Positions 3,877 to 14,868 of a stretch of DNA of 64,000 nt are shown here, in pieces. Both the position numbers and the translations under genes were made by a program. This DNA is from Candidatus Competibacteraceae bacterium (GTDB taxonomy: Bacteria; Pseudomonadota; Gammaproteobacteria; Competibacterales; Competibacteraceae): positions 1,186 to 65,185 of the forward strand of contig JAZBPA010000065.1 in the NCBI GenBank assembly GCA_036351435.1. Reading direction: 5' to 3'. The notes beneath the pieces were generated by a model. The model had not been told where the DNA came from and made no database searches. It worked only from the letters and a program-made list of their open reading frames with translations. Each line of letters starts with the position of its first letter. The stretch's first letter is position 1.

Positions 3877-4209
3877 ATGGCAAAACCGCGCACCTTTTCC
3901 AAATACGCCCAGGAAGCTGCCGTTCTGATGGGCAAGCAGATCAAGCTGGGGCGCAAGCAGCGTCAATGGACAGAGAAGAATCTCGCTGAACGCGCAGGAA
4001 TCTCCAGAGCCACACTGCAACAAATCGAAAATGGTGAGATGAGTTGCGCCATCGGCTTAGTCTTCGAAGTCGCCACTCTGGTCGGTGTCAACTTGTTTGA
4101 TCAGGACAAACTTCCTCTAGCAACACATATTGAGCAAACACGCGACAAAATTGCGTTGCTACCGCAACGTATCAAAACCAAGACAAAGGTGATTTACGAT
4201 GACTTCTAG
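3877..4209 (+). CDS. hipB: XRE-family HTH antitoxin, HipB-like
   Basis: 110 aa. The HTH is WTEKNLAERAGISRATLQQIENGE. It overlaps the downstream HipA-like ORF by 11 nt. Confidence 0.8.
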   Translation: MAKPRTFSKYAQEAAVLMGKQIKLGRKQRQWTEKNLAERAGISRATLQQIENGEMSCAIGLVFEVATLVGVNLFDQDKLPLATHIEQTRDKIALLPQRIKTKTKVIYDDF

Positions 4210-5458
4210 CCATTTCAAAGAAGCCTTTGTCTGGATATGGCTGCCGGATGAAATCGAGCCGGTCGTGGCTGGGAGGCTAGAAGCAGAAAACAACAATATC
4301 CTGTTTAACTACGGTAAGAGCTACCTCGAACGTAGCAGAGACATCAAGCCTGCGATGTCGATTTATGAGCCGGAATTGCCGTTGCAGGCTGGAGTCTTGC
4401 CTCTGCCCGAGGGCTTGAGTATGCCCGGTTGTATCCGCGATGCCGCGCCCGATGCGTGGGGACGACGCGTTATTATCAACAAAATGATAGGGCTCAAGGG
4501 CACAAGCACCGATACGGCCGAGCTGGATGAATTGACATACTTGCTGGAATCCGGTTCTGATCGTATTGGTGCGCTCGACTTTCAACGCTCACCATCCGAG
4601 TATGTACCCCGTGCCGTGAACAATGTAAGCATGGAGGAGCTGCTTGAATCCGCTGAACGGGTAGAGCAAGGTGTACCGCTCACGCCGGAACTGGATCAAG
4701 CATTATTCCATGGCAGTTCTATCGGCGGTGCGCGCCCCAAAGCCCTGATCGGAGATCAAGGCAAAAAGTACGTCGCCAAATTTTCCTCCAGCACTGACCT
4801 GTATAGCGTTGTCAAAGCCGAATTCATAGCCATGAAGCTGGCGGCTCTTGCAGGGCTAAACGTTGCACCTGTCGAACTGGCCAGGGTGGCTAATAAGGAT
4901 GTACTACTCATTGAGCGTTTTGACCGAATACCCACCGATCAGGGCTGGGCACGCAAAGCTATGGTCTCCGCGCTCACGCTATTTGGCCTGGATGACATGA
5001 TGGCGCGCTATGCGAGCTATGAAACATTTGCCGAGATTATCCGGCACCGTTTTGCTGATCCAAAAGCAACGCTTGAGGAAGTCTTTTCACGGCTCGTTTT
5101 TAATATTCTCTGCGGAAACACCGATGACCATGCCCGGAATCACGCGGCGTTCTGGGATGGTAAAGAACTGACGCTAACGCCAGCCTATGATATATGTCCG
5201 CAGGGCCGGACAGGCAATGAAGCATCACAGTCTATGCGGATATCCGGCGATAATAATCTCAGTCAGCTTAAATCTTGCCTGGATGCCGCCTATCACTTTC
5301 TGTTATCTGAGCAGGATGCCCGCGCTATTTTCGACAAGCTGATCCATGGCATTGAACAACACTGGGATTGGGTGTGCGAGGAAGCCCAACTGAGCAAAGT
5401 GGATAAAAAACTGTTGTGGGGGCGGCAGTTTTTAAACTCGTTTTCAATGATTGATTAG
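4199..5458 (+). CDS. hipA: HipA-family serine/threonine kinase toxin
   Basis: 419 aa. GSSIGGARPKALI and the catalytic-loop-like GNTDDHARNHAAF are HipA_C signatures. It is paired with the upstream HTH gene. Confidence 0.85.
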   Translation: MTSSHFKEAFVWIWLPDEIEPVVAGRLEAENNNILFNYGKSYLERSRDIKPAMSIYEPELPLQAGVLPLPEGLSMPGCIRDAAPDAWGRRVIINKMIGLKGTSTDTAELDELTYLLESGSDRIGALDFQRSPSEYVPRAVNNVSMEELLESAERVEQGVPLTPELDQALFHGSSIGGARPKALIGDQGKKYVAKFSSSTDLYSVVKAEFIAMKLAALAGLNVAPVELARVANKDVLLIERFDRIPTDQGWARKAMVSALTLFGLDDMMARYASYETFAEIIRHRFADPKATLEEVFSRLVFNILCGNTDDHARNHAAFWDGKELTLTPAYDICPQGRTGNEASQSMRISGDNNLSQLKSCLDAAYHFLLSEQDARAIFDKLIHGIEQHWDWVCEEAQLSKVDKKLLWGRQFLNSFSMID

Positions 5459-5673
5459 TATCCCGCTGACCGCCGTATCCGCCAATCACGCAAACGCCTA
5501 AATAACAGACACCCCAGCAGAATGACGGCGATGACTAATGTCAACCCTGCGGCCAAAGCCGGATTGGCGCCGAGGAACCCGATGCCTGCCACCAGCAGCA
5601 TTATCCCTAACCAACATACCAAGGCCGACTGCCTTATTCGGAATAATCGTGCGACGACTGCTTCGAGGTGCGA

Positions 5674-6486
5674 TTAGGCACCCAATCCGGTTCGGTCCCA
5701 GTGCCGTAATCGCCCTGCCAACAAACGAATGGCCGGATCGCCAGGAATATAGGTATTGGCCCAATAGCCGTTAGCTGGTTGGAAACTGAGATTTTCTAAC
5801 GATTCGCGTTGCGTTAGAAATCCTTGAGCGGCCAAGGCAGTTGATTCATGGGAATGGTATTCAGAGTGTATCGGTGATTCTTGCGACTTTCGGGTAGCTG
5901 TAATAACTGTTTCTCGTTGCGGTTTTCGGCTGTCTTCATCAACTTGAGATTGCCGTTCGGCTTTTGCCTCCAAACCGGCGCCCAATAATCGTATTTTGGC
6001 TTGCGCTTCGGGGGCGTCGGCTATTTGTTGATCACGTGGGTCACGGCGCCCGGATATAGGGCCATCAAGATCCTTGCCGATAGCTATCACTTCTTGCTCA
6101 GATATTTTCCGGGCAAAGCGTAGACCGTTGTCGGGCATCTCATCTCGAATCGGACGAGGGGCATTAATGTCGTGCCGACTGATCGGTTCCTCCGCAGAAT
6201 CAGCCAGTTCGAACTCATCGCCATGGGGCAGGTTGTCAGCTTCTGTCTTGATACGCGCAATGCGTTCCTCCGCATTCGCGAAACCCTGAACAAACTGAGA
6301 AGTATCCATCATGTCAGCGGCGGATCGTTGCTTTTTAGAGAACTCCTTGGTCGTTTCAACTGCTTGGAGTTCTGAACCCACAGTTTTCATGGACTTTGGA
6401 CCGGTCTGTCCTAGCGCTAGAACAGCTAATAGCACAAGAAGTACAGCAAAGATTAAGGCCATATGCTGCTGTTTGGCTTTTTGCAT
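5674..6486 (-). CDS. hypothetical secreted or membrane-anchored protein, highly charged and low-complexity
   Basis: 270 aa. The N-terminal hydrophobic segment is MALIFAVLLVLLAVLALG; the rest is rich in D/E/R/K/Q. No family recognised. Confidence 0.5.
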   Translation of the reverse strand: MQKAKQQHMALIFAVLLVLLAVLALGQTGPKSMKTVGSELQAVETTKEFSKKQRSAADMMDTSQFVQGFANAEERIARIKTEADNLPHGDEFELADSAEEPISRHDINAPRPIRDEMPDNGLRFARKISEQEVIAIGKDLDGPISGRRDPRDQQIADAPEAQAKIRLLGAGLEAKAERQSQVDEDSRKPQRETVITATRKSQESPIHSEYHSHESTALAAQGFLTQRESLENLSFQPANGYWANTYIPGDPAIRLLAGRLRHWDRTGLGA

Positions 6487-6598
6487 AGCAGAATTCCGCT
6501 AATATAGGTAATCAACACTGGTTTGCTTGAAATAAACGTCTTAACTTGGCATTCGGGGTTAAATCTTGTTCCCTTACTCAACATCTTCAAAATAAGGC

Positions 6599-7237
6599 AT
6601 GGATGAGCAAACACTTTCTCCAAATACTTTTAACATCGAACTGATCGATGATACCCGTCTAACTCCACTGATCGTTGATCTTGACGGGACCTTAACACCA
6701 ACAGATACTTTGGTTGAAAGTGTCATTGAACTGATCAGGCAATCCCCGTTCTACTTCATACGATTACCCCTATGGCTGCTGAAAGGTAGAGCCGGATTTA
6801 AGGAAGCTGTAGCTAATCGAGTGCGTATTGATGCGCAAAGCCTACCCTACAATATCCCATTATTGACTTATTTAGGGACCGAGAAGAGTAAAGGCCGCCA
6901 AATCGTTTTAGCCACGGCAGCGCACCATTCCATTGCCGCAGCTGTTGCAACCCATCTTGACCTGTTTGATGAAGTGATAGCGACTCAGCACCGCCAAAAT
7001 ATTAAAGGATGCGCTAAACTCGCGGCTATTCAACAGAAAGTCGGTGAGACATTTGTTTATGCCGGAGATAGCAAAGCTGACATTCCTATTTGGAGAGCTG
7101 CAGAAGGGGCTATATTAGTCGGCGTATCGAAACGTTTAGCGGATAAAATTCGCCGGGATCGTAGTATCTGGATTGAGCGAGAATTTGAAAGAGCGATAAA
7201 TCCACGCGGGAGTTGGTCACGTATTCTGTTGCGATAA
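6599..7237 (+). CDS. HAD-superfamily phosphatase-like protein
   Basis: HAD motif I is LIVDLDGTLTPTD, with a later AGDSKADIP (motif IV-like). It is often found fused or adjacent to UbiA-type prenyl-phosphate glycosyl carrier synthases. Confidence 0.7.
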   Translation: MDEQTLSPNTFNIELIDDTRLTPLIVDLDGTLTPTDTLVESVIELIRQSPFYFIRLPLWLLKGRAGFKEAVANRVRIDAQSLPYNIPLLTYLGTEKSKGRQIVLATAAHHSIAAAVATHLDLFDEVIATQHRQNIKGCAKLAAIQQKVGETFVYAGDSKADIPIWRAAEGAILVGVSKRLADKIRRDRSIWIEREFERAINPRGSWSRILLR

Positions 7238-7277
7238 CTTGCCAGGATGCAAAATAATAATATTTGAGTAGAATAAA

Positions 7278-9032
7278 ATGCTATTTAATCGTCTTCCTTT
7301 GTTTTTTCTTTTTTACTCTATACCATCTGTATTATTTCTTTGCTTTATTATTCCTCCAATGCAAGCTCCAGACGAATTTGCGCATTTTTTCCGTGCAGAG
7401 CAACTAAGTGCTGGTGAAATTATTGGGGTTAAACAAGAAATAAATGGCAGGATTGTAAGTGGCGGGTATGTTGACAGCAATCTATTTAAAGTAATCGGAC
7501 GGTTTACGTACCTCGTTCATGATCAGAGCATAAAAATATCCGACGAAGTCTTGCAAGGAGCAGGCACGTTGAGCTGGACCGATAGTCGGATATTGAATTT
7601 ATTCCCTAACACGGTTGTCTATCCACCCTTCTGCTACTCATCCCAAGTTGTGGGAATATGGATTGGAAAGTTTTTCAATCTAAGCATTCTTGATACGTAT
7701 TATCTTTGCCGAACGTTAACTGCATTAAGCTGTGTACTGATTTGCTTTTTGGCACTCCACTGGTGCCACCGTGGACGTATTGTAATGTTCACTGTGCTGC
7801 TATTCCCTATGACACTCTTTCTTTTTTCATCGTGCTCTCAAGATGCACTTCTAATCAGTTTGATCGTATTAATTATTGCTATTTTTTCACGGCTATCTGA
7901 AGCTAAACGGCAGACAACGGCGACGGAGTATCTACTGATTCTAATCGGGATGGCAGCTGTGCTCACAACGCGACCACCTTACATTGGTTTGATTATTCTA
8001 TTCTTCTGGGATTCTGTGAAATATCAGCTTCAACCAGTGCGGCGAAGTATCGGCACGACAGGAACCCGTAACATTGCCGTAATTTTTGTTTTATCGACTC
8101 TAGTTGGCTGGGCTACTCTGGTTTCCCATCTTGAAGTCACCATGATCCCAGGAGCATCTGTTTCCGGGCAGTTAACATATCTGATCAACAATCCAACCTC
8201 TATTTATTATACGGCAGTCAACACGATATCGGAACACACGATATCATACGTTATGGGTACTATCGGGGTTTTAGGATGGTTGGATACTTATTTTCCGATG
8301 TTTTATTATATCACTACTGTTGTTATTATTTTTATTGCTCTTATCGCGGAATCAATTACCTCAAACACGCTCAGCAGTCGTGCTAGAATTATTGCTTTAC
8401 TGGCTCTATTAACATGTATCCTTGGCGTTTTTGCTGCACTTTACTTAAGATGGTCGCCAGTAGGTTCTGAGATGGTTGATGGTGTTCAGGGACGTTATTT
8501 TATCCCGTTAATTCCATTATTAACGTTCTTAGTGCCTTCCGTTTCTGAGAGAGTGGCTACTAAAATAAAGATAACGCTTATTGTCGTCACTCTCTTTCCA
8601 TTAATGAGTACGGTTCTAATGAATATCTTAATTGTCGAACGTTATTATCTGTCGTTCCATATACCGAAATATCAATCCGTAATAGGCGACTGGGATAATG
8701 ACGGTTTTCTCGAAGTCGGCATTAAGCGTGGTAGCCAATGGTTTCTCGATAACGGTAATGGTGTTTGGGACGAGTGCGGCACCTTTCCTACTCACGATGT
8801 ATGTATTGCTAATTACGGGTCGGCCAGTGATCAGCCGGTAGCGGGCGACTGGAATAGCGATGGCTTCACCGAGATCGGCATCGCTCGTGGGACGCATTGG
8901 TTTCTCGATAACGGTAATGGTATCCGGGATAAATGCGGCGCGTTCCCTGATCATGACGTTTGTATCAATATGGGGCTGCGAGGATTTCCAATCAATAAAT
9001 CGAGAGCCCCCTTTAAGGCTGGAAAAAAATAG
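7278..9032 (+). CDS. polytopic membrane protein, DUF2142-like (putative GT-C type glycosyltransferase) with C-terminal FG-GAP/VCBS-like repeats
   Basis: 584 aa with at least 10 hydrophobic helices. The N-terminal PPMQAPDEFAHFFRAEQLSAGE resembles the DUF2142 signature as I recall it. The C-terminus carries two GDW(D/N)xDGFxE(V/I)GIxRGxxWFLDNGNG units. The DNA is visibly AT-rich. Confidence 0.7.
   Translation: MLFNRLPLFFLFYSIPSVLFLCFIIPPMQAPDEFAHFFRAEQLSAGEIIGVKQEINGRIVSGGYVDSNLFKVIGRFTYLVHDQSIKISDEVLQGAGTLSWTDSRILNLFPNTVVYPPFCYSSQVVGIWIGKFFNLSILDTYYLCRTLTALSCVLICFLALHWCHRGRIVMFTVLLFPMTLFLFSSCSQDALLISLIVLIIAIFSRLSEAKRQTTATEYLLILIGMAAVLTTRPPYIGLIILFFWDSVKYQLQPVRRSIGTTGTRNIAVIFVLSTLVGWATLVSHLEVTMIPGASVSGQLTYLINNPTSIYYTAVNTISEHTISYVMGTIGVLGWLDTYFPMFYYITTVVIIFIALIAESITSNTLSSRARIIALLALLTCILGVFAALYLRWSPVGSEMVDGVQGRYFIPLIPLLTFLVPSVSERVATKIKITLIVVTLFPLMSTVLMNILIVERYYLSFHIPKYQSVIGDWDNDGFLEVGIKRGSQWFLDNGNGVWDECGTFPTHDVCIANYGSASDQPVAGDWNSDGFTEIGIARGTHWFLDNGNGIRDKCGAFPDHDVCINMGLRGFPINKSRAPFKAGKK
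8685..8970 (+). repeat. tandem 159-nt (53-aa) coding repeat, FG-GAP-like
   Basis: ggcgactgg starts at 8685 and again at 8844. A 26-nt identical core (attggtttctcgataacggtaatggt) is present in both copies. Confidence 0.8.
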
Positions 9033-9064
9033 CACCGAACTTACAGCAGTCCTAACCGGTTGAG

Positions 9065-9451
9065 TTACTGGGCAAACGTGTAATGTTTGTTGATAACAAA
9101 GTTAAAAATGAACACCACTCCAGTCGCCACACCTTGCGCCATCAGATAAGGAATACCGGCAGGCCCTTCCAAACCCCAGAAAACCAGCGCGTTAACTCCC
9201 ATCATGAGCAACGTCACTGCGAGATAACGCGGGAAGCGCTTACTATGAGCATCTTCAGCACGGAAGGTCCAGTGATATTGGAGCAAGTAATTGACAACTA
9301 AACCAACGGCGAAGCCACAAGTCGTTGCTAGTGTCGGATCGGCTGCGAACAGCTCAACGAGTAGGATCAGGACCAGAAAGTGAACCCCGACCGCGGCTGA
9401 CCCAGCCACGAAGTAACGGCCAATAATCGCAAAGCCATGTTCGCCCTGCAC
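9065..9451 (-). CDS. GtrA-family membrane protein (polyprenyl-phospho-sugar handling/flippase-like)
   Basis: 128 aa, 4 TM, with VNYLLQYHWTF and FNFVINKHYTF GtrA-like blocks. The GTG start lies 1 nt after the upstream UbiA stop. Confidence 0.8.
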   Translation of the reverse strand: MQGEHGFAIIGRYFVAGSAAVGVHFLVLILLVELFAADPTLATTCGFAVGLVVNYLLQYHWTFRAEDAHSKRFPRYLAVTLLMMGVNALVFWGLEGPAGIPYLMAQGVATGVVFIFNFVINKHYTFAQ

Positions 9452-9452
9452 G

Positions 9453-10409
9453 TCAATAACTCAGGGGTTCTACAAGAATATTAAGCCAAGGAATATCTAT
9501 CACAAACAGGGCAACTACGATCAACCCCAACAGGAACACATAACCCACGAACACGGGCTCCTGATAAAGTCGTTCCGGGGCTTGGCTTGCTGAATGGCGC
9601 TTCATGGCGATGTGCAGATACCAGACATATAGCAGGGTGAAAAACGGCAGAGACAAGATGAACTCAATGCGGTACTTGATCAGAAAAATTCCTAAGAAGA
9701 ATGCGGATAAAATCGCATAGAAGAAAGAAGACAGCAGCAGTGTCTCCTCGGTGTAAAAACGGAACGAACGCCGATACAGCGCGGCACTCTCCGGGTTGTC
9801 AATGAATCGGTACTCCGCATAGCGTTTCATGGCCATGAGAAAGGCACCACCCATCCAGTAACTGAGGAGTATTGAGGACGGTGGTAAGCGACCGCTGATA
9901 ATGGCACTCCAGCCTAACAACAGGCGGATTGGGTTATTGACCGATTCGCTGATCACATCCAGCAATATGCGATCCTTGGTCCGGAAGGGACGCACGTTAT
10001 ACAACACGCCCATCATTAACAGGAGCCACGAAAAGAAAACAAACTCAGGATTTAACAGACTGGCTAGGCCCATACCCAGACCAACAAACAACAAATACTC
10101 AATAAAAACGTAGCGCCCTCGCACACTACCCGAAGCTGAAGGCCTATTTCGCTTGATAGGGTGGTGGCGATCAAACTCCGCGTCCAACCATTCGTTAATG
10201 ACGTAGTTAGCCGAGGCAATAAAACCGGTGCTAAGCAGCGCAATCAGAGCCGACGTTAAAATGCTTTCGGCTGGAACGTCTACCAACAGCCAAGCCAATG
10301 CGAGGCCGGGCAACATGAATACATTTTTGAACCAGTGGTCGAAACGCGCAATTCTGATATAAGGGTGTAACCTACCCCAAAGCCACATCTCCCGCTTGTT
10401 TGTTTCCAT
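9453..10409 (-). CDS. UbiA-family prenyltransferase, decaprenyl-phosphate phosphoribosyltransferase (DPPR synthase)-like
   Basis: 318 aa, polytopic. NYVINEWLDAEFDRHHPIKRNRPSASG matches the NxxxDxxxDRxHPxKRxRPxAxG block I recall from Rv3806c-type enzymes. Confidence 0.8.
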   Translation of the reverse strand: METNKREMWLWGRLHPYIRIARFDHWFKNVFMLPGLALAWLLVDVPAESILTSALIALLSTGFIASANYVINEWLDAEFDRHHPIKRNRPSASGSVRGRYVFIEYLLFVGLGMGLASLLNPEFVFFSWLLLMMGVLYNVRPFRTKDRILLDVISESVNNPIRLLLGWSAIISGRLPPSSILLSYWMGGAFLMAMKRYAEYRFIDNPESAALYRRSFRFYTEETLLLSSFFYAILSAFFLGIFLIKYRIEFILSLPFFTLLYVWYLHIAMKRHSASQAPERLYQEPVFVGYVFLLGLIVVALFVIDIPWLNILVEPLSY

Positions 10410-10488
10410 TGCGAAGTGTTTTTCTGTTGTTTTTATTGATTATTCGAATCCAGTCAGGCAAAAGTAATCCACCGGGCAAAAGTCTAGC

Positions 10489-11916
10489 CTAAGACGCTTG
10501 CAAAGTGGATAAGTAATGCGCGGCCAGCACTTGTGCCACACAACCGGTCAATTTCCGCGCTGTAGTGATATGCAAAAACTCATTGGGGCCATGAGCATTC
10601 GCACCCGGCCCTAAAACACCAGTAATCAAAAATTGAGCCTTGGGATACCGTAGTCCGAGCATATTCATAAATGGAATAGTGCCGCCTTCCCCCATATACA
10701 GGGCATCTCGCCCAAACCAAGAGTGCGAGGCCTGTTCCAAAGACTTTGCAAGCCATGGTTTCAAAGGGGGCGCATTCCAACCGGTGCCAGTTTGTTCAGG
10801 CTGGAAAGAGACGTGAGCCCCTTGCTGGGGATGATCTTCCAGCAGCGCCTTAACGGTTTGCATAGCCGCTTCGGCATTGCAGGTCGGCGGCAAGCGTAAA
10901 GACAGTCTGAGTGTTGTTGAAGGTCGGGCCACGTTGCCCGCATTCGTCAGTGGCGGCAGACCGGCAGCACCGGTAACTTCCAAGGCGCTGCGCCAAGTAC
11001 GGTTCAGCACTAGCTCTGTTGGGTCGCCGCGGACTGGGCGTACTCCAGATACAAAAGGGAAGCGTTGATACGCCTGTTCGCCTAAAACCTTTGCAGCACG
11101 GGCGGCCTGCATACGCCGCTCATCAGGTATCTCGTCGGCCAACGCCTCGGGCAATATCTCCCCGGTTTCCGCATCCTCCAGCCGATCCAGTAAATGGCGT
11201 GCTATTCGGAAACTGGACGGCACAATGCCCCCGGCATCCCCCGAATGCACGCCTTCTTCAAGCACAGTTACCGTTAAATCACCCGAGATTAAGCCGCGTA
11301 ACGAAGTAGTGCACCATAATTGTTCATAGTTGCCGCAACCGGAGTCCAGACAAATCACCAACGAAGGCGTACCGATTGTATCGGCCAATTCATCCATGTA
11401 AGCCGGCAGATCTGGACTGCCGCTTTCTTCGGATGCTTCGATCAGAACCACACAGCGGGCGTGAGGAACCCCTTGCGCCTGTAAAGCTCCGATTGCCGCC
11501 AGCGAAGCGAATATGGCATAACCGTCATCGGCTCCGCCGCGACCGTAGAGCCGATCATTTTCCAACACCGGCTTCCACGGCCCCAAATCATCTCGCCAAC
11601 CGTGCATCTCGGGTTGCTTGTCTAAATGCCCGTACAGCAATACCGTTTCCGCATTGGTATCTTGGCCGGGAATCTCAATACATAGTACCGGTGTGCGTCC
11701 AGCAAGCCGCACAGTGCGTATGGTCATATCTCTGATCGCCTGTTGCTGACACCAACTTTCCAACAACACGATAGCCTGCTCCATATAGCCATTAGCTTCC
11801 CAGTCTGCATCAAAAGCCGGGGACTTGTTAGGAATGCGGATATACTCAACTAAGGTGGGCAGGATAGAATCATGCCAAAGCTGGTCAATAAATGCGCGGG
11901 CGTGAGTGGTATCCAT
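10489..11916 (-). CDS. M20-family metallopeptidase (dipeptidase, CNDP/Dug1-like)
   Basis: 475 aa. LLYGHLDKQP, GRGGADDGY and EASEESGS metal-ligand blocks are typical of M20A dipeptidases. Confidence 0.85.
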   Translation of the reverse strand: MDTTHARAFIDQLWHDSILPTLVEYIRIPNKSPAFDADWEANGYMEQAIVLLESWCQQQAIRDMTIRTVRLAGRTPVLCIEIPGQDTNAETVLLYGHLDKQPEMHGWRDDLGPWKPVLENDRLYGRGGADDGYAIFASLAAIGALQAQGVPHARCVVLIEASEESGSPDLPAYMDELADTIGTPSLVICLDSGCGNYEQLWCTTSLRGLISGDLTVTVLEEGVHSGDAGGIVPSSFRIARHLLDRLEDAETGEILPEALADEIPDERRMQAARAAKVLGEQAYQRFPFVSGVRPVRGDPTELVLNRTWRSALEVTGAAGLPPLTNAGNVARPSTTLRLSLRLPPTCNAEAAMQTVKALLEDHPQQGAHVSFQPEQTGTGWNAPPLKPWLAKSLEQASHSWFGRDALYMGEGGTIPFMNMLGLRYPKAQFLITGVLGPGANAHGPNEFLHITTARKLTGCVAQVLAAHYLSTLQAS

Positions 11917-12011
11917 AGATGGACTCCGAGTTCATGGCTGAATAAAATTCGGGCTTATCGCGCTGCTGTGACTGGCGGCGCTGAATTATTGATTGTGGAG
12001 ATGAACAACCC

Positions 12012-12632
12012 ATGCCGATTCGAATAGCATTCATTCTATACCTTATGTTCATGGTTAGCCTTGTCAGCGCCACCGAATCCGTGTCGACTCAGAACGCTGG
12101 GGGTGAGGCCAAAGCGACCTTTGCCGGCGGGTGTTTTTGGTGCATGGAACCGCCGTTCGACAAACTGGAAGGAGTGATTTCAACCACTTCAGGCTATATC
12201 GGCGGACATAAAGACAACCCCACCTATAAAGAAGTTTCGGCTGGCGTTACCGGGCATACTGAAGCGGTGCAAGTGGTTTACGATCCCACCGTTATCAGCT
12301 ACGAAGAACTATTGAAAGTGTTTTGGCGAAATGTCGATCCATTGACCGCTAACCGCCAATTCTGTGATTCGGGTAGCCAATATCGAACCGGGATATTTTT
12401 TCACAATGAAACCCAGCAACGCTTGGCCGAGCAATCGAAACAGGTGTTAGAACAATCCGGTCGGTTTCAGCAACCGATTGTGACTGAGATTACTACAGCC
12501 ACCACGTTTTATCCGGCTGAGACATATCATCAGGATTACTATCAGAAAAACCCGTTGCGCTATAAGTTTTATCGTCATGGATGCGGTCGTGACCAGCGGC
12601 TTGAGGAGCTGTGGGGCAGTGCGACCAAGTGA
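12012..12632 (+). CDS. msrA: peptide-methionine (S)-S-oxide reductase with N-terminal signal peptide
   Basis: The GGCFWCMEPPF active-site motif and HTEAVQVVYDP are present. The N-terminus MPIRIAFILYLMFMVSLVSA looks like an export signal. Confidence 0.9.
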   Translation: MPIRIAFILYLMFMVSLVSATESVSTQNAGGEAKATFAGGCFWCMEPPFDKLEGVISTTSGYIGGHKDNPTYKEVSAGVTGHTEAVQVVYDPTVISYEELLKVFWRNVDPLTANRQFCDSGSQYRTGIFFHNETQQRLAEQSKQVLEQSGRFQQPIVTEITTATTFYPAETYHQDYYQKNPLRYKFYRHGCGRDQRLEELWGSATK

Positions 12633-13783
12633 TGTTTGATGACCAAGCGTTACTACCCGAACCGTTAGAACGGTTGCTGATTCCCGCAGAACTGGATGGT
12701 CGTCATGGGGGCAACCGGGCGCGCGGTGGGGTGTGTCAATTGGCTGCGGATAATGATATGCAGGCTATTCAGTCCTGGTTGGCAGAATTCAGCGATTCTC
12801 CGCAAACCTTGCGTCATTACCGCAAGGAAGCTGAACGTTTGCTACTTTGGGCGTTGTTGGAACGGCGTAAACCTTTATCTGGTCTGACCCGCGAAGATTG
12901 CTTGCTCTACGAGACATTTCTAGCCGATCCTCAACCCGACGAACGGTGGTGTGCGCCTAAAGCGCCCCGCTTCAGCTCGCGCTGGCGACCGTTTCAAGGA
13001 CCATTGAGCGCTGCCAGCCGCCGCACCGCACTATTGGTCATCAATTCCTTGCTTAGTTATTTGGTAAAAGCCGGTTATCTGGCCGGCAATCCTTTGGCTT
13101 TGATCAAGCGGAGGGTGCGGGAAGGCACAATCGCACAGCCCACGGTAGAACGGTATCTGGAAGGCGATCAATGGCAGGCATTGCTGGATACTGTAGCAGC
13201 CTTGCCGCAGGATACGGATAGACAACGACAATATTACGAAAGGGCACGGTTTTTGTTAGCTTTATTATATCTATTGGGACCACGGGTTAACGAAGTCGCT
13301 ACTCATACGATGGGCAGTTTTGTTCAGGTCCGCAGTCGTTGGTGGTGGGTCGTGACCGGCAAAGGTCGCAAAACCGCTCGGGTACCAGTTAATCGGGATA
13401 TGTTGCAGGCCCTTAGGGTATATCGCGCTTCGTTGGGCCTATCGCCCTTGCCGGAGCCGGGCGACGATACACCATTAATCATGAATCTGCGTGGCACCGG
13501 GGGTATCACCGATAATATGATTTACCGTATTGTTAAGGAGTTGGTTAACCAAGCCGCCGAACGCTTACAACACAATGATCCTTGGCAGGCAAATAAATTA
13601 CGGCGGGCATCAACCCATTGGCTTCGCCATACCAGTATTACCCATCAAGCGGATGCTGGTATTGAGCTAAATTATCTGCGCCGTAATGCTCGTCATGCCA
13701 AGTTAGATACCACGGGATTGTATTTACACGCTGAAGATGAGCAGTGGCATGATGCGATGGAGCAGCATCGTCTGAAAAAATAG
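12632..13783 (+). CDS. tyrosine site-specific recombinase/integrase
   Basis: Catalytic blocks are GPRVNEV (Arg I), HWLRHT (HxxR) and LDTTGLYLH (Tyr). The N-terminal AADNDMQAIQSWL...YRKEAERLLLWA is a SAM-like domain. ATG 12632 overlaps the msrA TGA (TGATG). An in-frame GTG at 12611 is an alternative start. Confidence 0.85.
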   Translation: MFDDQALLPEPLERLLIPAELDGRHGGNRARGGVCQLAADNDMQAIQSWLAEFSDSPQTLRHYRKEAERLLLWALLERRKPLSGLTREDCLLYETFLADPQPDERWCAPKAPRFSSRWRPFQGPLSAASRRTALLVINSLLSYLVKAGYLAGNPLALIKRRVREGTIAQPTVERYLEGDQWQALLDTVAALPQDTDRQRQYYERARFLLALLYLLGPRVNEVATHTMGSFVQVRSRWWWVVTGKGRKTARVPVNRDMLQALRVYRASLGLSPLPEPGDDTPLIMNLRGTGGITDNMIYRIVKELVNQAAERLQHNDPWQANKLRRASTHWLRHTSITHQADAGIELNYLRRNARHAKLDTTGLYLHAEDEQWHDAMEQHRLKK

Positions 13784-13827
13784 CCGGCTATCGACCCTGT
13801 CGAGCTATTCCATTAAACTCCTCGGCC

Positions 13828-14868
13828 ATGAGTGAAGTAATTGACTTGCTAGAACCAAATCCGGTTCGCCGCCAGAGCGTGTCCAACAAAACTAAGCTTG
13901 CAATAATTGCTGGAATATTTTTGCTATCCACAACAGCCGCTGTCGCCCAGCAGCCTCCACGCGGCACGTTTAATCTACTGATCGAGAACGATAAATTTAC
14001 CGGTACCGACCGCCATTACACTAATGGCGTGCAACTCAGTTATCTGTCCGGCAAAGACAGAGTACCTCGTTGGTTGCGTAACACTGCGCGCTATCTCCCC
14101 GGCATACAAACTACCGCCGCGCTCCGAACCGGATACGTATTGGGCCATAGTATTTTCACCCCAGATGATATTACCACGGCCGAACCATTACCGGATGAGC
14201 GTCCCTATGCCGGTTGGCTCTATGGCGGCGTCGCCTTAGTTGCGGAGACCGAGAACCGGCTTGACACCTGGGAACTGGACTTGGGTATTGTGGGCCCATC
14301 GGCGCGTGGTGAAGAAGTCCAAAATTCGTTTCACCGCTTAATAGGGGTCAATGAAGCCAACGGCTGGGACAATCAGCTTAAAGATGAGTTTGGTTATGCT
14401 CTGATCTATGAACGTAAGTGGCGTAACCTATGGGAACATCGTCGAACCGGTTTCGGCTTGGACTTGATTCCCCATATCGGAGGCAGCCTGGGCAATGTCG
14501 GGACTTATTTGGATTTAGGCGCAACCTTGCGTATCGGCAACGATTTGCCCAATGATTTTGGCGCGCCCCGCATCCGCCCCAGCCTGCCGGGATCGAACTT
14601 TTTCTTGCCACGGGATAACTTCGGCTGGTATTTGTTTGCGGGGGTCAGCGGCCGCGCTGTGGCGTACACGATTTTTCTCGATGGGAATACCATTAAAAAT
14701 AGCCTCAGCGTAGACAGAGAACCGCTGGTTGGCGATTTACAAGCTGGTCTGGTGACCAACCTCGGCTGGGCACGATTAGCCTACACCTATGTCTATCGCA
14801 CTCGGGAGTTTAAAGGCCAGGAAGAACCTGATCATTTTGGTTCTATTGGGCTATCGGTAAAATTCTAG
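13828..14868 (+). CDS. lpxR: lipid A 3'-O-deacylase LpxR-family outer-membrane protein (DUF2219)
   Basis: FNLLIENDKFTGTDRHYTNGVQLSY is the characteristic N-terminal block. It has a signal-like segment and ends in an aromatic residue (beta-barrel-like ...GLSVKF). Confidence 0.75.
   Translation: MSEVIDLLEPNPVRRQSVSNKTKLAIIAGIFLLSTTAAVAQQPPRGTFNLLIENDKFTGTDRHYTNGVQLSYLSGKDRVPRWLRNTARYLPGIQTTAALRTGYVLGHSIFTPDDITTAEPLPDERPYAGWLYGGVALVAETENRLDTWELDLGIVGPSARGEEVQNSFHRLIGVNEANGWDNQLKDEFGYALIYERKWRNLWEHRRTGFGLDLIPHIGGSLGNVGTYLDLGATLRIGNDLPNDFGAPRIRPSLPGSNFFLPRDNFGWYLFAGVSGRAVAYTIFLDGNTIKNSLSVDREPLVGDLQAGLVTNLGWARLAYTYVYRTREFKGQEEPDHFGSIGLSVKF

Follow-up and report, generated by a model that had tools for sequence, protein, structure and literature searches.

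The mycobacterial decaprenyl-phospho-arabinose pathway comprises the decaprenylphosphoryl-5-phosphoribose (DPPR) synthase Rv3806c (DPPRS), the phosphatase Rv3807c, DprE1 and DprE2, the GtrA-like protein Rv3789 and the Emb and Aft glycosyltransferases (GTs) of the GT-C type. A three-component extracytoplasmic system for pentofuranose side chains has been proven biochemically for the Citrobacter youngae O1/O2 antigens, in which ORF15 is a phosphoribose phosphatase (PRP) fused to a polyprenyl-phosphate phosphoribose synthase (PPPRS), ORF14 is the transporter and ORF12 is a GT-C enzyme of family GT136 (Kelly et al., PNAS 2024, PMC11127046). The same authors list variants with a split PRP, with MATE- or 'SMR'-type transporters (the latter being their label for GtrA and Rv3789) and with unannotated GT-Cs (PMC11127046). 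In Pseudomonas aeruginosa, PsPA7_6246-6249 and TfpW are responsible for D-arabinofuranosylation of the group IV pilin (cited in PMC11127046; bioRxiv 10.1101/2020.04.19.049825). The window analysed here is a 64,000-nt stretch of contig JAZBPA010000065.1 (positions 1,186 to 65,185) from a Candidatus Competibacteraceae bacterium (assembly GCA_036351435.1). It carries a cassette of four genes that encode a haloacid dehalogenase (HAD) phosphatase, a polytopic DUF2142 protein, a small GtrA-family membrane protein and a UbiA-family enzyme. The four genes probably constitute one periplasmic pentofuranose glycosylation system built from parts of two lineages; its enzymatic steps, lipid carrier, sugar and acceptor are what we infer from the comparisons below.

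The predicted ribosyl donor module

The cassette consists of two convergent units (Table 1). The HAD and DUF2142 genes lie on the same strand, 40 nt apart. In the other unit, the UbiA stop codon is separated by a single nucleotide from the GTG start of GtrA (minus-strand junction AGT TAT TGA C GTG CAG), and 32 nt lie between the facing stops of DUF2142 and GtrA. The first-pass annotation, made from the letters of the DNA, had described this arrangement of the four open reading frames (ORFs), including the 1-nt spacing, and had quoted a UbiA motif, DRHHPIKRNRPSASG. Coordinates and strands are as it claimed, the spacing is seen in the minus-strand sequence, and the motif is found at residues 80–94 of the translation. 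Its family calls (HAD, DUF2142, GtrA, UbiA) were checked by hidden Markov model search, and all four proteins were matched in Pfam with assignments far above chance. All four ORFs are intact, and each of the four types, namely PRP-type HAD, DPPRS-like UbiA, GtrA and DUF2142, occurs once in the 97%-complete genome, in the cassette, with the sole GtrA gene beside UbiA. Promoter and terminator scans gave nothing better than shuffled sequence.

The UbiA protein was proposed at the outset to be a relative of DPPR synthase, and several comparisons bear this out. Of all PDB chain sequences, only that of the M. tuberculosis DPPR synthase 8J8J is matched at E<=1 (E 4e-12). Its top NCBIfam models are the HAD-UbiA fusion NF006088 (PRK08238) and three DPPRS models, with 58–82 bits, versus at most 45 bits on the ubiA, cyoE and chlorophyll-synthase models. 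In the alignment to 8J8J, the block N72-E73-W-L-D76-A-E-F-D80-R-H-H-P-I-K-R-N-R-P lies opposite N-D-V-R-D-V-E-A-D-R-E-H-P-T-K-R-F-R-P, and K195-R-Y-A-E199, which covers R196 and E199, lies opposite K-R-Y-A-E. These blocks comprise the residues of loops II and IV that were mutated in C. youngae ORF15 (PMC11127046). On the DPPRS equivalogs NF008976, NF008977 and NF008978 the protein scores 81.7, 66 and 58 bits (cut-offs 234, 207 and 474, respectively). It also remains below the cut-off of NF006088 (82 bits versus 351), which is set for a two-domain polypeptide, and it shares 34% identity over 145 aa with the UbiA domain of the fusion type.

In a maximum-likelihood tree, UbiA falls into a well-populated clade of its own, sister to a clade that holds M. 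tuberculosis DPPRS, a Bacteroidota DPPRS adjoining DprE1/DprE2 homologues, and fused or split PPPRS. The tree has long branches, and its outgroup is a small sample, namely the two other UbiA-superfamily paralogues of the host genome, which are probably the quinone and heme-O enzymes. Grouping with quinone or heme prenyltransferases, the outcome that would have spoken against the initial proposal, was looked for, and UbiA falls on the DPPRS/PPPRS side of the tree. By all sequence criteria the protein is thus DPPRS-like, yet it lies outside the curated DPPRS equivalogs. It is predicted to be a polyprenyl-phosphate 5-phosphoribosyltransferase that uses phosphoribosyl pyrophosphate (PRPP). A tblastn search of UbiA against the phage collection returned no match.

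The HAD phosphatase resembles the PRP half of the fused enzymes. It matches the N-terminal half of the fusion model NF006088 (positions 9–180, 199 bits) and shares 51% identity (E 3e-62) with the domain at the N-terminus of a HAD-UbiA fusion from Burkholderia multivorans, which itself scores 633 bits on this model. The motifs DLDGT (D27-L-D29-G-T, which contains the nucleophile) and GDSKAD are conserved between the two proteins. Identity to the PRP domain in the Rhizobium CCGE531 locus, one of those listed by Kelly et al., is 41%; nothing significant was found among PDB sequences. Among its ten closest relatives in metagenomes, seven correspond to the N-terminal domain of a HAD-UbiA fusion, and for three stand-alone relatives a gene for a fusion-type UbiA comes directly afterwards, so this type of HAD is a dedicated PPPRS partner. 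As far as is known, the PRP domain serves only to remove the 5-phosphate once ribosyl transfer from PRPP has taken place (PMC11127046). The initial suggestion that the HAD protein acts as the dephosphorylating partner therefore gains from its PRP type, and polyprenyl-P-5-phosphoribose is the predicted substrate from which it would take off the 5-phosphate.

The clade to which the stand-alone UbiA belongs is large. More than 6000 homologous proteins are found at E<=1e-10. The closest relatives come from metagenome-assembled genomes (MAGs) of Chromatiaceae and Methylococcales, and identity is 60–80% in these groups and in other gammaproteobacterial MAGs. Identity above 50% extends over more than 10 phyla and is found in Alphaproteobacteria, Desulfobacterota, Planctomycetota, Bacteroidota, Lachnospiraceae, Cyanobacteriota, Melainabacteria and genomes of the candidate phyla radiation. 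In a tally of genes within 4 kb of clade members in 80 genomes, GtrA is present in 25 (directly downstream in 22) and a HAD phosphatase in 37 (HAD-IA in 20, HAD-IB in 17). Less frequent neighbours are methyltransferases (12/80), radical-SAM proteins (8/80), GT-C enzymes of the PMT_2 type (8/80), GT2 enzymes (6/80) and NAD-epimerases (5/80). In Rhizobium johnstonii 3841, plasmid pRL10 carries a member of the clade (326170-327156), with UbiA, HAD and GtrA in one operon. By analogy, a synthase with a phosphatase and GtrA, at times joined by a GT-C and an epimerase, follows the logic of the characterised pentofuranose system (PMC11127046). No curated NCBIfam model covers this clade, and public pipelines label its members 'UbiA prenyltransferase' or '4-hydroxybenzoate polyprenyltransferase', labels that are probably wrong.

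The HAD protein of the cassette differs from the phosphatase that usually accompanies this clade: it shows no BLAST similarity to the HAD of the pRL10 operon and 24% identity to the phosphatase in the locus of a gammaproteobacterial UbiA relative. The GtrA protein, which has no significant match among PDB sequences, is predicted to be the flippase for the polyprenyl-P-sugar.

The absence of DprE1/DprE2-like genes, noted at first from the surroundings of the cassette, extends to the whole 97%-complete genome, in which the best score is 85 bits on the DprE1 model NF053785 (cut-off 500) and 85 bits on the DprE2 model NF053786 (cut-off 250). There is no epimerase inside or beside the cassette. According to the rule derived for pentofuranose loci, absence of an epimerase corresponds to ribofuranose (Ribf), an ORF13-like short-chain dehydrogenase/reductase (SDR) to xylofuranose (Xylf) and DprE1/DprE2 to arabinofuranose (Araf) (PMC11127046). 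With no linked epimerase and no DprE1/DprE2 match, the donor most likely stays ribofuranose.

A match to PF04030 (ALO) at a contig edge was considered as a DprE1 candidate. It is the 3' end of a single FAD-oxidase gene (FAD_binding_4 with an ALO-like C-terminus) that is split over two contigs (C342:7004-8224 and C126:3-494). The contig ends overlap by ~70 aa with one difference (G/R), a sign of either heterogeneity among strains or an artefact of assembly. The oxidase gene adjoins rimP-nusA-infB and has no SDR partner. Its similarity is generic, with L-galactonolactone dehydrogenase and cytokinin oxidase outscoring DprE1, and it was rejected as an epimerase.

A putative GT-C transferase with a lectin-like module

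The DUF2142 protein has no match at all among PDB sequences. Its AlphaFold2 (AF2) model is confident over residues 1–460 (pLDDT >90, pTM 0.80), and the top Foldseek matches in the PDB are ALG12, ArnT, ALG9, Pmt4 and AglB, with probabilities of 0.85–1.0 and modest TM-scores of 0.32–0.47. All of these best matches are lipid-phosphate-sugar-dependent GT-C enzymes. The model thus supports a GT-C fold, in line with the early guess that the polytopic protein is a GT-C transferase, and the protein is predicted to be a periplasmic transferase that uses a lipid-linked sugar. A public gene call for this protein begins at Met28 (557 aa) and leaves 7278-7358 of the window outside. The 584-aa ORF is the better gene model because homologues have the first transmembrane helix (TM1) ahead of the invariant Asp32 and because AlphaFold predicts residues 3–24 to be a helix with pLDDT >90; a start at Met28 would remove the helix that precedes Asp32.

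The closest homologues, from a search of 5.8 billion proteins, are 30–36% identical and match the membrane domain only. In an alignment of 54 homologues, D32, P177 and Q404-G405-R406-Y407 are invariant, and E33, H36 and R39 are nearly so. This pattern resembles, by analogy, D31/E34 and R349/Y350 of ORF12, which have been shown to be essential (PMC11127046). The nearest relatives sit with GT2 and GtrA in classical three-component hexose systems and would therefore use polyprenyl-P-monosaccharide donors; other relatives are located in polysaccharide loci. No EpsG model was matched in the Pfam scan of the protein, and BLAST found no similarity between it and the GT-C of the Rhizobium CCGE531 locus, which has no Pfam match. 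Judged by the CDD description of ORF12 as EpsG-like (Table S1) and by this CCGE531 enzyme, the transferase appears to be distinct from GT136.

Two loci of related proteins deserve mention. The closest homologue (36% identity; JAOQIA010004595.1, 1062-6848) is flanked by FG-GAP/UnbV_ASPIC and FG-GAP proteins, so the association of DUF2142 with FG-GAP recurs elsewhere in the form of separate genes. In JGI Ga0224555_1004569 (5057-10082), a Flp-family pilin gene is immediately followed by genes for a DUF2142 GT-C, a GT2 and a GtrA-methyltransferase fusion, and a secretin is encoded nearby; the locus could be a Tad/Flp pilin glycosylation system.

The transferase has a C-terminal extension (residues 456–584), which contains two copies of a ~53-aa repeat. 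At the DNA level these form a direct repeat of 136 nt with 72% identity (8671-8806 and 8830-8965). Pfam gives a weak FG-GAP_3 match at residues 471–533, and AF2 prediction with an alignment of paralogues yields two four-stranded blades with pLDDT ~90. The best fold matches are propeller lectins of the FG-GAP type that bind GlcNAc, namely PAL, PVL and AAL-2 (probability 0.98, 23% identity), but with an E-value of only 0.06. Each repeat has a conserved pair of cysteines, and an extracytoplasmic location of the module therefore fits. Taking into account also that 11 transmembrane helices are predicted for the lactococcal DUF2142 protein WpsI (PMC12599335) and that the paralogue carriers are of an exported nature, the C-terminal domain would be periplasmic.

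The same module is present in about 12 other, otherwise unrelated ORFs of the genome, always as C-terminal arrays and with 45–66% identity (Table 1), and has the consensus GDWNxDGxxEIGVxRGxxWFLDxNGNGxWDxCGxFPxxDxC. Ten of these ORFs were scanned with Pfam: two are PhoPQ-related, one contains CARDB, one contains PD40 repeats and six have no match. Several carriers have export-associated domains. The repeat resembles a tag for surface anchoring or lectin function that is particular to this lineage. By analogy to the carbohydrate-binding module (CBM) of ORF12, the double repeat is a candidate lectin-like module for binding of the acceptor.

Table 1. Features of the cassette (window positions) and further ORFs of the genome with the C-terminal module (genome contig:positions)
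Feature	Position	Strand	Assignment
HAD-IB phosphatase, stand-alone, PRP type, 212 aa	6599-7237	+	Pfam HAD 1.3e-10
DUF2142 polytopic protein, 584 aa	7278-9032	+	Pfam DUF2142 (PF09913) 1e-58, residues 20-415
DUF2142 protein, membrane domain (residues 1-455)	7278-8642	+	Putative GT-C glycosyltransferase
DUF2142 protein, C-terminal extension (residues 456-584)	8643-9032	+	Two FG-GAP-like repeats
GtrA-family small membrane protein, 128 aa	9065-9451	-	Pfam GtrA_DPMS_TM (PF04138) 5.7e-25
UbiA-family enzyme, DPPR-synthase-like, 318 aa	9453-10409	-	Pfam UbiA (PF01040) 5.5e-25
Module-bearing ORF	C425:2050-4344		
Module-bearing ORF	C260:11858-12805		
Module-bearing ORF	C278:1226-3559		
Module-bearing ORF	C76:6217-7521		
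Module-bearing ORF	C76:7558-8739		
Module-bearing ORF	C76:38531-41017		
Module-bearing ORF	C247:17353-19476		
Module-bearing ORF	C16:4307-5500		
Module-bearing ORF	C318:342-2516		
Module-bearing ORF	C91:3392-5518		

One pathway or two neighbouring units

In the proposed pathway, UbiA would transfer 5-phosphoribose from PRPP onto undecaprenyl phosphate at the cytoplasmic face of the membrane, and the stand-alone HAD would then take off the 5-phosphate to give undecaprenyl-P-ribofuranose. GtrA would flip this lipid to the periplasm, where the DUF2142 GT-C would move ribofuranose to an acceptor with the help of the Asp32/Glu33 loop after TM1 and the Q-G-R-Y motif. The pair of FG-GAP repeats at its C-terminus might aid binding of the acceptor, as the CBM of C. 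youngae ORF12 does with the O antigen. The window contains genes for LpxR (370 bits), LpxA, GnnA/B-like proteins and PagL, so the host is a diderm that makes lipopolysaccharide (LPS), and undecaprenyl phosphate, not decaprenyl phosphate, is the presumed carrier. The type IV pilus signalling genes PilJ and ChpA are also present. Possible acceptors are LPS, pilin, another envelope glycan and FG-GAP-tagged exported proteins, with a glycan slightly favoured because of the lectin-like module.

The base composition of the cassette is uneven. The genome mean is 52.9% GC. The HAD gene has 45.5% GC (38.5% at third codon positions, GC3), and the membrane domain of the DUF2142 protein, with 40.4%, belongs to the lowest 0.5% of 1-kb windows of the genome; by GC, both look foreign. 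The values for GtrA (51.4%) and UbiA (48.7%, GC3 59%) are higher, and the FG-GAP-like module (48.5%) is nearer to the genome mean than the membrane domain to which it is fused. UbiA and DUF2142 are each present in one of 40 relatives. In our reading, the cassette is accessory and chimeric: the UbiA-GtrA pair is native-like, its usual phosphatase was functionally replaced by an incoming PRP-type HAD, and the latter arrived together with the GT-C, which gained the host-specific C-terminal module later. The surrounding accessory-looking block (3877-14868) comprises hipBA, an unknown, highly charged exported protein of 270 aa, an M20 peptidase, an MsrA with a signal peptide whose gene overlaps that of a tyrosine recombinase, and LpxR; there are no glycan assembly genes adjacent to the cassette.

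Several observations weigh against a single pathway that ends in ribofuranose transfer. UbiA scores under every curated DPPRS cut-off and belongs to a sister clade with long branches, which makes its use of PRPP an extrapolation, and the second residue of its NDxxDxxxD block is Glu (E73) instead of Asp. The two units are convergent, differ by ~8–10 points in GC and come from separate lineages, and they lie outside any glycan biosynthesis locus. Adjacency of HAD and DUF2142 was found at no other locus examined, and among the 80 genomes of the neighbour tally, DUF2142 is near a member of the UbiA clade in one, a cyanobacterial MAG. Furthermore, some lactococcal DUF2142 proteins were proposed to be polymerases or ligases and not monosaccharide transferases (PMC12599335).

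Much of this would be expected if the cassette were two unrelated neighbours, with UbiA-GtrA a remnant of a widespread UbiA-GtrA-HAD module, working elsewhere or not, and HAD-DUF2142 a separate fragment whose transferase takes a hexose donor such as undecaprenyl phosphate glucose made by a GT2 encoded elsewhere. The closest DUF2142 homologues do pair with GT2 and GtrA, and the differences in GC and lineage, the convergent genes and the singular combination speak for this reading as well. We nevertheless consider such a coincidence unlikely. The UbiA-GtrA unit has no phosphatase and no transferase, and the HAD-DUF2142 unit has no synthase and no flippase. A PRP-type HAD encoded 40 nt from DUF2142, and presumably co-transcribed with it, would have no substrate unless it were supplied by the neighbouring UbiA, the product of the only DPPRS-like gene in the genome, and the only GtrA is encoded beside that UbiA. 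The UbiA-GtrA pair, in turn, would be left without the phosphatase that is seen in 37/80 related loci. All four ORFs, moreover, are intact. It is very improbable that UbiA is an aromatic prenyltransferase (ubiquinone, menaquinone, heme O or chlorophyll type) in a cassette unrelated to glycosylation. Pfam assigns the protein to the 'UbiA family' only, and some pipelines call its homologues '4-hydroxybenzoate polyprenyltransferase', but no structure of such an enzyme was matched at E<=1, against 4e-12 for DPPRS, the ubiA and cyoE scores are at most about half of those for DPPRS, the separate UbiA-superfamily paralogues form the outgroup of the tree, and the conserved partners of the clade are GtrA and phosphatases.

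The architecture could also be as proposed and the sugar a different one, either because an unlinked or unrecognised epimerase converts it to Araf or Xylf, or because the phospho-sugar that serves the UbiA clade as donor is not PRPP. The position of the clade, sister to and outside the characterised DPPRS/PPPRS and with long branches, is compatible with this, as are the methyltransferases, radical-SAM proteins and NAD-epimerases that flank its members (12/80, 8/80 and 5/80); the C. youngae GT-C accepts both Ribf and Xylf donors (PMC11127046), and one FAD oxidase of the host has weak DprE1-like similarity (85 bits). That score and the one for DprE2 are far under the cut-offs, though, and the oxidase gene lies beside rimP-nusA without an SDR partner. 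The cassette neither contains nor adjoins an epimerase gene, and with a phosphatase of the PRP type a 5-phosphoribosyl intermediate is implied (PMC11127046), which makes a sugar other than ribofuranose doubtful. A bolder extension of the single-pathway reading is that the double repeat is a genome-specific surface-targeting tag and that an acquired hexose-type DUF2142 GT-C was re-tooled by fusion to this tag and by pairing with a ribose donor, so that it ribosylates a tag-recognised envelope polymer or tagged proteins, with the stand-alone UbiA-GtrA-HAD clade being a major but so far overlooked branch of the synthases that make lipid-linked pentofuranose donors. In this full form the idea is speculative and has a small chance of being correct.

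Relation to described systems

Read as one pathway, the cassette predicts that LPS, pili or exported proteins of the host are decorated with ribofuranose. If the system is active, shuffling of such genes would yield new surface epitopes. The clade around its synthase indicates a very large, highly conserved and uncurated group of DPPRS-like enzymes.

With the mycobacterial pathway, the cassette shares a DPPRS-like UbiA with the N-x-x-x-D-x-x-x-D-R-x-HP-x-KR-x-RP block, a GtrA-family partner and, by prediction, a GT-C that uses a polyprenyl-P-pentofuranose. Unlike in that pathway, DprE1 and DprE2 have no match here, the phosphatase is a HAD protein instead of PAP2, the GT-C belongs to another family and the host is a diderm. 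The P. aeruginosa pathway, an earlier case among Gram-negatives, is similar in that a DPPRS homologue in a Gram-negative bacterium feeds a lipid-linked pentofuranose to a periplasmic GT-C. It includes DprE1/E2 homologues and an adjoining pilin gene, whereas the cassette has no epimerases and no pilin gene nearby; with PilJ and ChpA in the host, pilin is nevertheless a conceivable acceptor. The combination of GtrA with a polytopic extracytoplasmic GT-C is also found in the GtrA/GtrB/GtrV hexose systems and in lactococcal and streptococcal loci for cell-wall polysaccharides that encode DUF2142 proteins (WpsI/WpsJ-like; PMC12599335). In contrast to GtrABV, there is no GT2 ORF at 3–15 kb of the window, and the donor slot is held by UbiA and HAD.

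The closest counterpart is the C. youngae system. Four activities would be common to both: a UbiA phosphoribosyltransferase, a PRP of the HAD type, a small flippase and a GT-C with a periplasmic β-rich C-terminal domain; the absence of an epimerase from the cassette matches the rule for Ribf (O1). The differences concern nearly every part. PRP and synthase are encoded by separate genes on opposite strands, and the synthase comes from the other, stand-alone UbiA clade. Compared to the fusion described by NF006088, which is one polypeptide, HAD (199 bits) and UbiA (82 bits) are separate and both below 351. The flippase is GtrA and not EmrE/ArnE-like as ORF14, the GT-C is a DUF2142 protein whereas ORF12 is EpsG-like by CDD, the extra domain is FG-GAP-like instead of an immunoglobulin-like CBM, and the cassette lies outside any O-antigen locus. 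The donor module is wired in yet another way in ERZ25039531 contig_116958 (7001-9592): genes for a split PRP-type HAD and a fusion-type UbiA precede one for a GT2-GtrA fusion within a Wzx/GT4 polysaccharide locus.

Neither the kind of pathway, which is already known and involves no new mechanism, nor the notion that a Gram-negative bacterium may have such a system is new (PMC11127046; P. aeruginosa pathway cited there). What is new is the list of parts and their chimeric origin: the synthase belongs to the stand-alone UbiA clade, the PRP is unfused, and GtrA is combined with a DUF2142 GT-C that bears FG-GAP repeats. If active, the cassette would show that the pentofuranose pathway described in 2024 is modular, and that its donor module can be combined with a GT-C that normally uses hexoses and with a host-specific binding domain.

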